Below, piece after piece: positions 5,042 to 55,273 of a stretch of DNA of 64,000 bases. Under the pieces are notes generated by a model that had not been told where the DNA came from, did not search any database, and saw only the letters and a program-made list of their open reading frames with translations. Source of the stretch: Macrostomum lignano (lineage: Eukaryota); the NCBI GenBank assembly GCA_002269645.1, contig NIVC01003678.1, positions 1-64,000 on the forward strand, in the 5' to 3' direction. Within the stretch, counting starts at the first letter, position 1. Every line of letters starts with the position of its first letter. The position numbers and the translations under genes are program-made.

Positions 5042-9349
<4,308 letters not shown>

Positions 9350-50319: not shown

Positions 50320-51362
50320 CCGAGACAGTGGCAGTACCGGTGCCAGATCAGACGGCCAGCACCTGTGCAAGGGCAATGCTCGAGGAGTGGGTCTGTCACT
50401 ACGGAGCCCCAGGGACAATCCACTCGGATCAGGGAGCCAATTTCGAGTCGCAATTGCTCGGCCAGCTGTGCGAAAGTCTGAATATCCGAAAGACGCGTAC
50501 GACCGCCTATCACCCCTCTGGAAACGGCCAAGTGGAAAGCTTCAATAAGACGCTGACTGCAGTGATCCGGGCGCACCTGGTGAAGGAGCCGGATCAGAGG
50601 CGGTGGGACGAATTCGTTGCCCCGGCGCTCATGGCGTATCGCTCCAGTGTGCACCGCGGCACCGGCCTTTCACCCTTCTTCCTTCTGCATGGTCGCGAGA
50701 TGTCTCTGCCAGTTGACTTGGGAGTGGCGCGCCCACTGGACATCGAACCGTACTGCGAGGAAGTCCAGAACCTGCGGGAGACGCTCGTGGAAGCCCATCG
50801 GGTGGTGCGTGAGAGAATAACGTCATATCAACGAGTGCAGAAAGACTGGTACGACCGGAAGGTGAAGGGTCGAGAATTCGTGGCTGGCGACGAGGTGTTC
50901 GTCTACAACCCCGTGTTGAAGGCCGGTGCCAAAGCGAAGCTCCACTCACCCTGGACCGGACCTGCCGTAGTTCTCGAGAAGCTGTCGGAGACGCGCTATA
51001 GGATTCGACAGGAAGGTCGACGGAAGCCGATCAAAGTGGTGCACTTTAACAACCTCCTGCCTCGATACCGGAAGTACCCAGTCGACGGCACCGGTGGCCC
51101 TCGGCGTCCTGCACCAAGGAGGTACCACCCAGGTCCTGCTCAAGAGACGGAATCCGTCAGGGAGGACTCGCAGGAATCAGACGATGAGGATGAGGAGCGA
51201 TGGTGGCGACATTCCGGGCGGGTTCGAGAGGAGGGAGAACCAATGGATGTGCAGCAGCCAGGAGTGCAGCCGCAGCCGGAAGCGCCAGTTGAAGTCATCG
51301 AAGGTCGACCCCAGAGGGATCGAAGGGTTCCGCAGCGTTATGGAACGCCCGTGTATTATTAA
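50320..51362 (+). pseudogene. 5'-truncated Gypsy integrase (core + GPY/F-like C-terminus)
   Basis: IHSDQGANFES (second D), KTRTTAYHPSGNGQVESFN (E), ALMAYRSSVH..TGLSPF, WTGPAVV..VVHFNNL. The HHCC zinc finger and first catalytic D are missing; the ORF-track N-terminus from 50232 is flanking DNA. Confidence 0.9.
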
Positions 51363-51390
51363 GAGCGGACGTGAGTGCGTGCGCAGTGTC

Positions 51391-51755
51391 GCGTCATCTC
51401 CTGCGTCATAAATAATTGGTTCGAAGCATCATTCGCGTCATCTCCTGCGTCATAAATAAGTGGTTCGAAGCATCATTCGCGTCATCTCCTGCGTCATAAA
51501 TAATTGGTTCGAAGCATCATCCGCGTCATCACCTGCGTCGTCAACATTTGGTTCGAAGCATCATCCGCGTCATCACCTGTGTCATAAATAATTGGTTCGA
51601 AGCATCATCCGCGTCATCTCCTGCGTCATAAATAAGTGGTTCGAAGCATCATTCGCGTCATCTCCTGCGTCATAAATAATTGGTTCGAAGCATCATCCGC
51701 GTCATCACCTGCGTCGTCAACATTTGGTTCGAAGCATCGTCTGCGTCATCACCCG
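51391..51755. repeat. 44-bp tandem repeat inside the retroelement (GCGTCATCTCCTGCGTCATAAATAATTGGTTCGAAGCATCATTC)n
   Basis: Period 44, about 8 copies, directly after the integrase stop. Confidence 0.9.
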
Positions 51756-51923
51756 CGTTATTGAAAACTGGGCTCGTGTTATTGCCTCTGCTTCACAAAC
51801 AAAAATATATATTTCCCCTCTTAAGGCCCGTCAGGGGAGGTCCCACCTGCCCAACCCTGCCATCAGGGATGAAGGATCGGCGCCCCAAAGAGGCTCGAAG
51901 GAACCATTGCCCTGCTCTCAAAA

Positions 51924-52841
51924 GTGAGTCGTGGTTGTTGCAGGCACTGCTTTCCGGGCATAGACCTCTACGCCGAGTTTGGTGTCAGCCCCTTCGCGAC
52001 GGAGGAGGAGCTGCGACGTGCGTACCGCCGTGAGAGCCTGCGACGGCACCCCGACAAGTGTGGACCCGGTGGAACGGAGAATTTCCAGAGGCTGCAGCAT
52101 GCGAGTGCGGTCCTGCTGTGTCCGTTTCGACGAGCGCTGTACGACCGGTTCGGGCAGGATGCCGTTAGCAACCCGCTCGAGTGCGCCCGGTATTTTGTCC
52201 CGCCGGATGGGATGTGCGTCCCGGAGGAGTTTGTCGTAACGATTGAAGACGAAACAGAAGAGTCAGACGAGGACAGGGAGTCGGAAGGAAGCGAGCGTGG
52301 TGGTTGCGGCGGCGAGGAGACTGCTCAGAGCTGCTGTGAAATCACGCAGTCAGAGGAAGAAGAGCTCTTGAATGAATCCGACGGCGAAACTTCGATGTCA
52401 GAAGACGAACCGGAGCTCGTCATCGACCAACGGGAGTCGCCAGCGTGGCTGATGAGGAGCGAGCCGAGTACCGAGGTGGAATACACCTGGAGCGGGGAGG
52501 CAACGCAGCGAAGAGCTCGAATCCGGTCGGAGCTTCGGCACGCTTTGTTGTCGGGGAGTCCAGCTGCGATGTTCCGGCTTTTGACTGAAATGGTGGGACT
52601 GTGCGGCAGCGAGCGGCTGGATCATCGACGCGAAATCGCCGAGCTTTTGGCTCAGACTGTCAAGTTCATTCTCCGTGACATCAGCGCCAAGTGTCGGGGT
52701 CATGCTCGGCGTGTCTGGCGGCGGCCTGCCTTCAAGCGAAGCACTCGGTTCGTCATGAGTGTTGCGATCCCTCAGTTTGAACTAATCGTCGGAGGACGCG
52801 TGTTGGGGTTGTTGCGCCGGGCGGCGGAGGTGGCGGTCTAG
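51924..52841 (+). CDS. Retrotransposon accessory ORF: N-terminal J-domain (DnaJ/Hsp40, HPD intact), acidic linker, basic helical C-terminus
   Basis: 51963-52154 encodes DLYAEFGVSPFATEEELRRAYRRESLRRHPDK...ENFQRLQHASAVLLCPFRRALYDRFG, matching all four J-domain helices. HPD at 52047-52055. The frame is open from 51873 but has no ATG before the J-domain (the track start is GTG). Confidence 0.85.
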   Translation: MSRGCCRHCFPGIDLYAEFGVSPFATEEELRRAYRRESLRRHPDKCGPGGTENFQRLQHASAVLLCPFRRALYDRFGQDAVSNPLECARYFVPPDGMCVPEEFVVTIEDETEESDEDRESEGSERGGCGGEETAQSCCEITQSEEEELLNESDGETSMSEDEPELVIDQRESPAWLMRSEPSTEVEYTWSGEATQRRARIRSELRHALLSGSPAAMFRLLTEMVGLCGSERLDHRREIAELLAQTVKFILRDISAKCRGHARRVWRRPAFKRSTRFVMSVAIPQFELIVGGRVLGLLRRAAEVAV

Positions 52842-52959
52842 GGGGTTCTGGGGCAGGATGCCAGGGCGGGCAAGAGACCTTCACTCCTTCATTTCATCCC
52901 ATCTCTCATCTGATCGTCGTTGTGATCCCTCTGTTTGGCACTGGGAGCGGCCCCGAAGG

Positions 52960-53640
52960 AAGGGCGGGGAACACTCTCGGCCATGCCCGGCGTTCTCGGT
53001 CGCTGCCCGGTGTTTTCGGCCGCTGCCAGTCGTTCTCGGCCGCTGCCCGGCATTCTCGGCCGCTGCCCGGCATTCTCGGTCGCTGTCCGGCACTCTCGGC
53101 CATGCCCGGCGTTCTCGGTCGCTGCCCGGTGTTTTCGGCCGCTGCCAGTCGTTCTCGGCCGCTGCCCGGCATTCTCGGCCGCTGCCCGGCATTCTCGGTC
53201 GCTGTCCGGCATTCTCGGCCATGCCCGGCGTTTTCGGCCACAGCCCGGCATTCTCGGCCGCTGCCCGGCATTCTCGGCCGCTGCCCGGCATTCTCGGCCG
53301 CTGTCCGGCACTCTCGGCCATGCCCGGCGTTCTCGGTCGCTGCCCGGCATTCTCGGCCGCTGCCCGGCATTCTCGGCCGCTGTCCGGCACTCTCGGCCAT
53401 GCCCGGCGTTCTCGGCCATGCCCGGCGTTCTCGGTCGCTGCCCGGCATTCTCGGCCGCTGTCCGGCATTCTCGGCCATGCCAGGCGTTCTCGGCCGCTGC
53501 CCGGCATTCTCGGTCGCTGTCCGGCATTCTCGGCCATGCCCGGCGTTTTCGGCCACAGTCCGGCATTCTCGGCCGTGCCCGGTGTTCTCGGCCTGTCCGA
53601 CATCCTCGGCCCCTGTCCTGCGCTCTCGGCCGCTGCCTGA
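52960..53640. repeat. CpG-rich ~20-bp modular repeat (CTCGGCCGCTGCCCGGCATT)n in the element 3' UTR
   Basis: Direct reading; includes a ~122-bp higher-order duplication. ORFs in all six frames reflect lack of stop codons. Confidence 0.9.
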
Positions 53641-53725
53641 CACTCTTGGTCTCTTTCATTCAGTTTCATTTCATTACATTTTTTTTTCATTTTCATTCAG
53701 TCAAAGCGCGTCGTTTTCTTTTTTT

Positions 53726-53736
53726 AGGGGGGAGGG
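53726..53736 (+). other. Polypurine tract
   Basis: AGGGGGGAGGG preceded by a T-run and immediately followed by TGTTGT. Confidence 0.9.
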
Positions 53737-54142
53737 TGTTGTGACCTGTGTCACAGTGCTCCCCTGGTGCAAGTGCACTTTGATAGTTGTTGACTTTGGT
53801 AGTTGATTATTGTTACCCCCCCCCCCGGCTCAAGCCAGTCTGGAGCTATGAGCCCTTTGGCTGAGCCTCTGCTCTCTTTCTCTCTCTCTCTCGCCTTGGC
53901 TGTTTAGCCCTTTGGCTAGCCGTGCTGATTGGCTGGGCCTCTGCTCTCTCTCCCTCTCCCTGGCCGTGCGCGCTTCCACCCTCCCCTCGCCGCAGCCAAT
54001 CAGCTGTCAATCAGCTCCATTGTTTAAGCCCTTTCTCCCCCCCCTTGTTTGCGCCCCTGCCCCTTTTTACTCGTTATTTAAGGCGACGCTCAGACCCCGC
54101 CCCTTTTCTCACCGTGCCTGCGCCCCATTTGCGCCCACCGCG

Positions 54143-54151
54143 ATAAATAAA
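54143..54151 (+). promoter_or_regulatory. Overlapping TATA-like box / AATAAA poly(A) signal of the LTR
   Basis: ATAAATAAA lies ~28 nt upstream of TCAGCCG (Inr-like, 54168-54174) where the SL starts. It is the only AATAAA I see in the LTR. Confidence 0.6.
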
Positions 54152-54171
54152 CGAACGTGACCAGCGATCAG

Positions 54172-54215
54172 CCGTAAAGACGGTCTCTTACTGCGAAGAC
54201 TCAATTTATTGCATG
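54172..54215 (+). other. Genomically encoded copy of the flatworm spliced-leader exon inside the LTR
   Basis: CCGTAAAGACGGTCTCTTACTGCGAAGACTCAATTTATTGCATG matches the Macrostomum lignano SL as I recall it. It has a 5' CCGT-AAAG-ACGG hairpin and the flatworm-type TTGCATG 3' end. It is not followed by GT, so this is not an SL RNA gene. Confidence 0.85.
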
Positions 54216-54336
54216 CCTGCGGCCTTCCCGTGTATGAGTGCTATAATCGACCCGGCCCGGTAAGCTGTCGAGACAATTGCCTGTGTTCCTCGGGGTCGCT
54301 CTCCTGATCTCTCTCTCTCTCACTCTCTCCTCAGTC

Positions 54337-54540
54337 TGACTCACCAGGCTGTCGAGTGGCCGACCGCCCGCAGCCCTCTCTCTCTTCCTTGACTCACCAG
54401 GCTGTCGAGTGGCCGCCCGCCCACAGCCCTCTCTCTTTTCCTTGATTCACCAGGCTGTCGAGTGGCCGACCGCCCGCAGCCCTCTCTCTCTTCCTTGACT
54501 CACCAGGCTGTCGAGTGGCCGCCTGCCCACAGCCGCCCCT
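54337..54540. repeat. 53-bp tandem repeat x4 in the LTR downstream (U5-like) region
   Basis: TGACTCACCAGGCTGTCGAGTGGCC at 54337, 54390, 54443 (TGATTCA variant) and 54496. Confidence 0.9.
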
Positions 54541-55273
54541 CCCCTCTCTCTCGACTTCTCAACCTTGACCTCCCCCCGAAGTGTCCGTACGCCTCGGGGT
54601 CGCCGATCGAGCTCGTAAGCCCTGGGCAGTCTAGTACCCGAACCCCGACACCGCTACCCGTCGCCCAACCCGGCCGTGCCAGCGAGGAAGGGGGATACAA
54701 CATATGCTCAAGCTCGAATGGCCTCCTTCACTCGCCTTCCGCTGCAGACGCTGACTCCCATTTCCATCTCCCCTATAATTGCATCACTTGCTTGAACAGC
54801 TTTCAACTTAAGGCTCCACTCGCAGAGTCCAATTCGACTCAGCCAGCAGCCAGAGGCGCATTGGGCAGCGCCTCTCGGTTTAAGCCGGCATTCCCGATCC
54901 ATCTTAGCGGCTGCCGGCAGACCGGCCGATCGGCAAGGGCGCTGCTGGATTAGCCATGAGCTGATGCGCCTAGCTCTCTTCCCGGCTCTCTGCATCAATC
55001 TTCTCCTATACTTTATTTTCTTTTTTATAATGAAATTAGAATTAAAATGAACCCCTTTCATGCATTGCTGTGACGCTGTGACAATAGAAGATGAGAAGAT
55101 ATTATATTGAGCATCCTTCCTCGATTTCGTGTAGATCGACTTAAGACCCTCAGATAGAACAGGTGGATTTCACTAGATCTCACGAATGGATAAATAGGAA
55201 AAATCGGTATTTCATGACTCGTTCGTCCTCGGGTTTTAGCATTGGTTCTGTTGTTTTGGCTTGAAGCAAATAC

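Follow-up and report, generated by a model that had tools for sequence, protein, structure and literature searches.

How a J-domain protein can be made from the third open reading frame (ORF) of a retrotransposon that seems to offer it no start codon is the question raised by the window considered here, a 64,000-nucleotide stretch of the Macrostomum lignano genome (GenBank assembly GCA_002269645.1, contig NIVC01003678.1, positions 1 to 64,000, forward strand). An open frame at positions 51873–52841, located after an integrase C-terminus, encodes a DnaJ domain (hereafter, J). An earlier note had proposed that this frame is expressed in the manner of env, from an RNA spliced between a donor in the 5′ LTR and an acceptor just upstream of J, and that translation starts at the AUG terminating an LTR stretch that resembles the host spliced leader (SL), such that the SL mimic and the J ORF form one system. 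We examined this proposal by comparing the window with 20 loci fetched by J, 20 fetched by reverse transcriptase (RT) and 15 more; the protein search recovered J ORFs at 34–60% identity.

A truncated member of a young Ty3/gypsy family

The element in the window is a 5′-truncated copy of a young Ty3/gypsy family, here called family A, whose third ORF encodes a J-domain protein. The truncation lies within the integrase, leaving the copy without 5′ LTR, gag and RT. Its features are as follows.

50326..51362, + strand: 3′ portion of pol with the integrase core and C-terminus (Pfam rve and Integrase_p58_C; homology to full copies from 50326 on)
51390..51760, + strand: tandem repeat of about 79 nt in the pol–J spacer (from sequence and spacer lengths; borders approximate; copy number differs between elements)
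51869..51871, + strand: ATG out of frame relative to J, inside the predicted intron
51936..51943, + strand: predicted acceptor site of the splice, with the family's J start codon 16 nt further on (shift in identity between families A and E; acceptors at the J start in other families)
51944..52841, + strand: predicted coding part of exon 2, comprising 1 nt, a 5-codon linker and the 293-aa J protein
51960..51962, + strand: site of the J ORF's own start codon, absent in the window copy (Met-1 invariant in 5/5 aligned families)
51963..52145, + strand: J-domain, HPD at 52047–52055 (PF00226; fold matches are J-domains)
52970..53640, + strand: tandem array of 19/20-nt units within the 3′ untranslated part (repeat family D19; borders approximate)
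53726..53736, + strand: polypurine tract (PPT)
53737..54702, + strand: 3′ LTR, TGTTG...CAACA (5′ and 3′ LTRs 98.6–99.9% identical within 11 full copies)
54075..54080, + strand: TATTTA, predicted TATA box (similar placement in other J families)
54146..54151, + strand: AATAAA, predicted polyadenylation signal
54171..54213, + strand: SL-like stretch of 43 nt, its start 19 nt beyond AATAAA and at the predicted R/U5 border (SL AUG missing in the family)
54214..54219, + strand: cluster of 5 substitutions private to this copy, completing the SL ATG; likely polishing artefact
54234..54259, + strand: conserved exon-1 ATG; 8 codons plus 2 nt (phase 2); a 307-aa form is predicted to start here
54260..54265, + strand: predicted splice donor GTAAGC, to be used in full copies, from their 5′ LTR (intron of about 5.7–5.8 kb)

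Family A is a young Ty3/gypsy LTR retrotransposon with some 20 near-identical copies, in which the J ORF is mostly intact. The J region has 22 matches at 94–100% identity in the assembly, the window counted, and 2 more at 74%. LTRs of full copies are about 970 nt long, the primer-binding site (PBS) is present in 10/10 and a 4-bp target-site duplication in 7/10 (the remaining three being two copies in tandem arrays and one mismatch). Together, TG...CA LTRs, PBS, PPT and target-site duplication place the family in Ty3/gypsy; the PBS presumably fits tRNA-Lys. Gag with a zinc knuckle and a pol order PR-RT-RH-INT were found in full copy L002 as well as in three other J families. An Rfam search gave no match, including none to SL RNA.

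The J-bearing families constitute one branch in the RT tree (support 100/99), separate from the J-less outgroups Q, R and S, and J-less members within this branch look like losses. J is missing in a recently moved relative (L102, LTRs 99.5% identical) and has also been lost in L104, L117 and L118. Its absence from recently moved relatives, along with the lack of an HPD motif in family H, indicates that J is dispensable in cis. The near outgroup Q (L114) begins like Mlig-id38, a family filed as Gmr1/Osvaldo in the portion of PMC12801592 covered here; the RT tree itself held no reference elements. Six further loci (L137–L141 and L143) were dropped as elements, since they have no pol or LTR and resemble host DnaJ genes; L144, in which no pol match was found, is mentioned only in passing. 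A heat-shock link was also discarded: no canonical HSE was found in any J-family LTR (16 loci), and the LTR matches were confined to the J-less L114.

Start codons in the window and in other copies

All the coordinates on which the splicing proposal was built are present in the window, namely, an ATG at 54213, the donor GTAAGC at 54260 (47 nt, phase 2), the acceptor AG at 51942–51943 and a branch-like CTCAA at 51917. The phases of donor and acceptor match, and the arithmetic yields a protein of 314 aa (15+1+298). The statement that the J ORF has no ATG of its own is correct for the window, where the first Met of the open frame is at aa 114 and a non-start codon occupies 51960–51962, but not for the family: the matching codon is ATG in all 19 other copies covering the J start, including L004, the duplicate of the window locus. 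Similarly, the SL-terminal ATG is there in the letters of the window but is missing from all of the 41 further LTRs of the family in which the 33-nt SL core is present. The premises of SL-AUG initiation are hence private to the window copy, which refutes that model for the family.

The conserved in-phase candidate initiator is instead a second ATG, at 54234, located 21 nt downstream of the proposed SL ATG. Exactly one equivalent ATG, 26 nt before the donor, was found in 54/55 occurrences (overlapping fetched stretches being counted separately). Its context is weak, that of the J ORF's own ATG strong. The alternative put forward in the same note, that ATG 51869 joins the J frame if the A4 run at 51920–51923 is really A3, did not hold up: the run is equally long in the 18/18 copies printed. 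We rejected this ATG as the J start, given that it is out of frame throughout the copies and lies in a region of low identity between A and its sister family E, upstream of the acceptor.

Origin of the SL-terminal ATG

The 35-mer at 54181–54215 of the window equals the published M. lignano SL (PMC8629364, as given in the part of that paper covered). The 33-nt core of the SL occurs 84 times in the assembly. At 41 of these sites it is not followed by TG, and all 41, each of which was read, are family A LTRs. Besides the window, there are 42 TG-ending sites; none of the 29 read is a family A LTR, and the 13 left unread are on contigs with SL RNA gene arrays. The SL-like 43-mer as a whole matches the leader exon as present in those arrays, and three runs guessed to be RNA contain contigs of very high depth on it.

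Over 4.4 kb of element, the window differs from L004 by 5 substitutions at scattered places; another 5 fall within 54214–54219, a cluster with a chance of about 5e-11 at that background. At host genes, SL overwriting was encountered in both of the two cases tried: the last 13 nt of the acceptor are replaced by the SL tail, at equal length, in two of three homologous copies, and the third copy has a normal acceptor in each case. Polishing of a published M. lignano assembly involved RNA-seq, according to the part of PMC5730564 covered. Such same-length swaps at host acceptors are the trace expected if RNA reads carrying the SL were used for polishing. For this reason, the ATG at 54213 that ends the SL is probably an assembly-polishing artefact. 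It is unlikely that this ATG is real, having arisen by recent gene conversion from SL-bearing cDNA, with expression otherwise as described below. SL pieces do integrate in flatworm genomes (covered part of PMC12582326), other SL-bearing repeats exist in the assembly, and L004 differs from the window at scattered bases, all of which would be compatible with conversion; nevertheless, equal-length SL swaps of the same kind are found at host acceptors in the same assembly and, even if real, the ATG belongs to a 3′ LTR that is orphaned and follows J, a place from which it would be unable to initiate J.

Initiation at the SL's own AUG, by which the same splice would produce a 314-aa protein and tie the SL mimic to the J ORF, agrees with the letters of the window and with the fact that flatworm SLs end in an ATG able to serve as a start (PMC12582326, part covered). 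Against this stand the terminal ATG in 0/41 other LTRs and the J ATG in 19/19 other copies, the lack of a 5′ LTR from which the window copy could splice, and the occurrence of SL overwriting elsewhere in the assembly. Moreover, among the J families read, SL-like sequence is confined to family A, which lends no support to a functional link between the mimic and J. SL-AUG initiation of the J protein is not supported, and we regard it as extremely improbable.

Splice sites and start codons among J families

The J-carrying families compared share 29–36% protein identity. A GT(A/G)AG donor is found 144–234 nt after TATTTA in 9/9 J families with the LTR read; in shuffled sequences, GTRAG arises by chance between TATA+140 and TATA+240, an interval picked after seeing the data, at 0.065–0.205 per family. 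Among the J-less outgroups, GTRAG is lacking in the LTRs of Q and R, and S has two GTGAG. On the acceptor side, YAG directly precedes the J ATG in B/B2 (4/4), C (4/4), K (1) and D (4/4), AG is 1 nt before the J ATG in G (2/2) and 7 nt before it in H (3/4 read). No ATG is present from TATA to donor in the LTR exons that were read in B, C, D and H; in G, upstream ATGs run into stops, save one in a 3′ LTR (L034).

Families E and F deviate from this arrangement in the supply of the start codon. In F, the J start has no ATG, but TG follows the acceptor at the Met-1 position in 7/8 copies, the remaining copy being without a start, and A precedes the donor in all three LTR types, such that the junction would build an ATG. 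A before the donor is also found in B and G and is not special to F. In E, a Leu codon replaces the ATG at the J start (3/3), and the LTR exon has a single phase-2 ATG, 23 nt before the donor, in 5/5 LTRs. Compared with A, the exon-1 ATG of E is in the same phase, and its distance to the donor differs by 3 nt, which keeps the frame.

Sequence identity between A and E changes at both predicted splice sites: at the acceptor, it is 13–14/39 on the intron side versus 28–30/39 on the exon side, and at the donor 11/14 before versus 12–13/39 after. The 5-codon linker has retained its length between the two families and shows third-position changes. In every lineage read, AG is retained next to the J start, with the neighbouring spacer unalignable. 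The acceptor of A has a weak pyrimidine tract (8/17). The comparison provides good support for the view that start-codon supply co-varies with the splice sites: the ATG may directly follow the acceptor, be formed across the junction or be provided in phase by the LTR exon. Family E relies on the last of these.

A few individual loci merit mention. L019, a member of family E, holds both the phase-2 LTR ATG and the ATG-less J start. An open out-of-frame ATG was seen by eye 74 nt before the donor in the decayed L134, and the 3′ LTR of L034 has an open out-of-frame ATG before the donor too. The LTR of L102, of family E, carries an earlier GTAAGA, 75 nt after TATA. L036 and L136 no longer have the J start.

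RNA evidence and routes of expression

The J stretch is present in 20/24 sequencing runs, the RNA status of which was guessed, and contigs from 4 of the 24 were aligned to copy L014. Among the joints listed for the contigs of these four runs, which drop minor forms, there is neither a joint of LTR donor and J acceptor nor an SL joint at the J acceptor. In each of three runs guessed to be RNA, a single contig crosses the acceptor unbroken and represents the unspliced form. Three joints listed start at the SL end and reach matches 20–22 nt long or unsized, away from the acceptor; we take these to be chance matches of host SL mRNAs. One of the three is near the J C-terminus, with no AG before it, and does not fit this reading well. 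The window's two private variants are in no contig of the four runs, and such contigs drop rare variants.

As regards the env-like splice, the comparative signal hence goes far beyond the 1-in-3 phase match from which the proposal had started, but its junction is absent from the contigs of four runs. On balance, we consider it likely that ORF3 is expressed through a splice of this type, from the 5′ LTR donor to the acceptor at 51943. Two other routes bear on the same data. Host SL trans-splicing at the acceptor could release J in an operon-like manner from read-through RNA or from RNA started at an internal promoter in the pol–J spacer, where there is an AT-rich TATA-like run at about 51803–51815. 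About 30% of M. lignano genes are trans-spliced, with an enriched acceptor motif (T/C)TNCAG (PMC8629364, part covered) that most J acceptors fit, and the route would be workable in families with ATG directly after the acceptor. However, this route would yield no J protein in E and F, where the J start has no ATG and that of the SL would not be in frame; the conserved LTR donor and the phase-2 exon-1 ATG would be left unexplained, and no SL joint at the acceptor was present in the four runs' contigs. As the main route, trans-splicing is therefore improbable, but it could be a minor one beside the LTR splice in A.

Without any splicing, J might be translated from the ATG that it has itself, on RNA that is unspliced or initiated internally, the splice-like motifs being remnants or serving poly(A) suppression; in some retroviruses, 5′ polyadenylation can be suppressed by the LTR donor. 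The unbroken passage of contigs across the acceptor and the strong context of the ATG in A speak for this possibility, which nonetheless fails in E and F, where the J start offers no ATG, and is at odds with the retention of AG beside the J start in every lineage read amid an unalignable spacer; we judge it somewhat less probable still than trans-splicing. Trans-splicing of the SL would miss the J frame in E and F, which leaves cis-splicing from the LTR as the sole model that fits all lineages.

The J protein

The Pfam DnaJ profile (PF00226) matches the J ORF of the window with an E-value of 1.4e-12. The product is a class C type J-domain protein, with a J fold and HPD but no G/F or zinc-finger region, H being the exception without HPD. 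The HPD motif is invariant in 5/5 aligned families (A, B, C, D and G) and is also kept in 5/5 outside relatives covering the N-terminus. Between C and K, 25 synonymous and 13 replacement codons differ in 80. The J-domain is followed by an acidic, disordered linker and a five-helix C-terminal domain; searches of PDB, BFVD, Pfam and ESM Atlas with this domain (model pLDDT 89.6) gave nothing significant. Among proteins of 161–513 aa, no annotated homologue of the family A J protein was found at E <= 1e-20, and there is consequently no annotated N-terminus to compare.

The maximum 19-residue hydropathy of six J proteins is 1.04–1.49, with no membrane segment, and there is no furin motif in A; judging from these features, the ORF3 product is not an Env-F-like protein. 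A chromodomain is carried by the family D element, which hints at the nucleus. Tentatively, the J protein might recruit host Hsp70 via its HPD to a client held by the C-terminal domain, most plausibly Gag/RNP or a chromatin complex.

Proposed mechanism and its significance

Overall, the best explanation, to which we assign a probability of roughly 0.7, is that the window holds a truncated Ty3/gypsy copy of a family that expresses J from a spliced subgenomic mRNA, joining the 5′ LTR donor to 51943, and that the SL ATG is an artefact. Transcription would start about 30 nt after TATTTA. The unspliced RNA would serve for gag-pol and packaging, and a minor spliced RNA would drop about 5.8 kb, thereby placing a short LTR exon ahead of J. 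Ribosomes could then initiate at the LTR ATG 54234, yielding 307 aa despite its weak context, or scan to the J ORF's own strong-context ATG, yielding 293 aa. The protein may bring host Hsp70, via HPD, to the Gag/RNP of the element or to a chromatin complex. As for the SL-like 43-mer at the R/U5 border, an SL-bearing 5′ end may have been captured at first-strand transfer; the AUG-less SL piece in exon 1 would then be a recent acquisition of family A that is not needed for J expression. By analogy with the use that polyomaviruses make of the T-antigen J-domain, one could go further and imagine a clade of flatworm LTR elements encoding their own Hsp70 co-chaperone on a spliced RNA to remodel the particle or a host silencing complex, with the AUG-less SL of family A letting its RNAs pass as trans-spliced host mRNAs; this is speculative and rather unlikely as a whole.

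LTR elements with a spliced third ORF have been described before; J-domain cargo was not found in the literature searched. If the mechanism is true, a transgenic-ready animal model offers a chaperone recruiter that is encoded by an element, and the J families would represent a natural series with three start-codon solutions around one splice. There is also a practical warning, in that SL-bearing RNA reads appear to have overwritten genomic sequence in the assembly, an effect that can create fake SL-AUG starts and erase acceptors.

Comparison with known systems

The T antigens of polyomaviruses have an N-terminal J-domain that contains HPD and leads into an acidic stretch, and in this respect resemble the J proteins described here, both being encoded by mobile genetic elements. 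They differ in that LxCxE is absent from 10/11 J proteins checked and in the C-terminal domain, which is unrelated and has no significant fold match.

In the literature searched, no J-domain ORF3 was found in LTR elements: the query 'Macrostomum + DnaJ + retrotransposon' returned 0, with the earlier M. lignano LTR classification and Cheng 2006 outside the scope, and in the supplement of PMC12801592, of which 2/13 places were seen, 'DnaJ' is in an expression table only. The 43 nt shared with the leader exon link family A to the arrays of the M. lignano SL RNA gene (PMC8629364, part covered). In contrast to that gene, the family has no terminal AUG, the donor is 45 nt further on rather than adjacent and nothing else of the SL RNA is present; on these grounds, the stretch does not qualify as an SL RNA gene.

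Host-derived, non-env ORF3s, typically expressed from spliced messages, are known from LTR elements of bdelloid rotifers (PMC5408684), but their cargo is an esterase, exonuclease or env, and 'DnaJ' occurs 0 times in that paper. A further case is CERV of the Caenorhabditis elegans element Cer1, a non-env ORF in the interval that separates pol from the 3′ LTR of a Ty3/gypsy element, which encodes an accessory protein made from a spliced mRNA (PMC10309623). As described in the covered part of that report, CERV uses gag-frame exons, has no J-domain and has been shown to act in RNA export, whereas the role of J is a prediction. Finally, the env-F genes of errantiviruses offer a parallel in expression. 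In the ZAM/Beagle and springer subclades, a short peptide-coding first exon and a start codon split by the junction have both been described (PMC12992720, part covered). Here, the cargo is a soluble J-domain protein instead of a fusion glycoprotein, the donor is inside the LTR and the splice is predicted rather than sequenced; yet the two systems share a third ORF after pol that is, or would be, spliced to an upstream exon, with the peptide exon recurring in A and E and the split start in F.

Spliced leader sequence in the LTRs and in the genome

In the long terminal repeats (LTRs) of family A, the Ty3/gypsy family of the window's own element, the piece resembling the M. lignano spliced leader (SL) starts 19 nt past AATAAA and immediately 3' of CA (window 54146-54213, from AATAAA to the last base of the piece). 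The copies fall into two variants at the 5' end of this piece, and the SL-like region is absent from both LTRs of one full-length copy (L010). Full or decayed SL sequence also occurs in other repeat families (L073-L083, L094, L095; L149, L151, L154; L047, L092, L150, L156). The SL RNA genes are arrayed at 11-20 kb spacing, with upstream contexts of two different types (L063-L070, L153, L157-L159, L163-L167).

In each of two host gene sets, an SL tail stands in place of the acceptor in two of three homologous copies (L121 and L123, as against L122; L127 and L128, as against L129). These swaps are probably RNA-polishing artefacts, and many of the 91 matches from the SL sequence search of the genome assembly (G000) may be of the same acceptor-overwriting kind.

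Element arrangement and the pol-J spacer

GTAAGC, the motif of the predicted LTR donor, occurs again in U5 at window 54615; lying in phase 0 behind stop codons, it is incompatible with the J frame. The 79-nt repeat at window 51390-51760 is rich in TGCGTCA, which resembles a bZIP site, and the pol-J spacer of family C contains similar motifs. Positions 1-49900 of the window consist mostly of micro- and minisatellite arrays. Elsewhere, elements lie in tandem, head-to-tail with a common LTR (L011/L012, L007, L013, L035).

Variation at the J position

Two related elements carry additional features:

L105:6616-8907, second RT-like ORF 3' of pol, family G relative
L027:6513-7499, chromodomain (PF00385, E 1.4e-12) in the linker of the family D J protein

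The former is probably a nested insertion where J would be. The family H J protein (L110-L113, J start near 6564-6573) is degenerate, without the HPD motif, and has an extension of about 300 aa, of which a separate downstream ORF in families F and N may be a counterpart. Relatives of the J ORF were also found in other assemblies (P0006, P0007, P0008, P0010, P0011, P0153); in P0008, the residues LLQ preceding the Met look like a read-through acceptor similar to those of families C and D.
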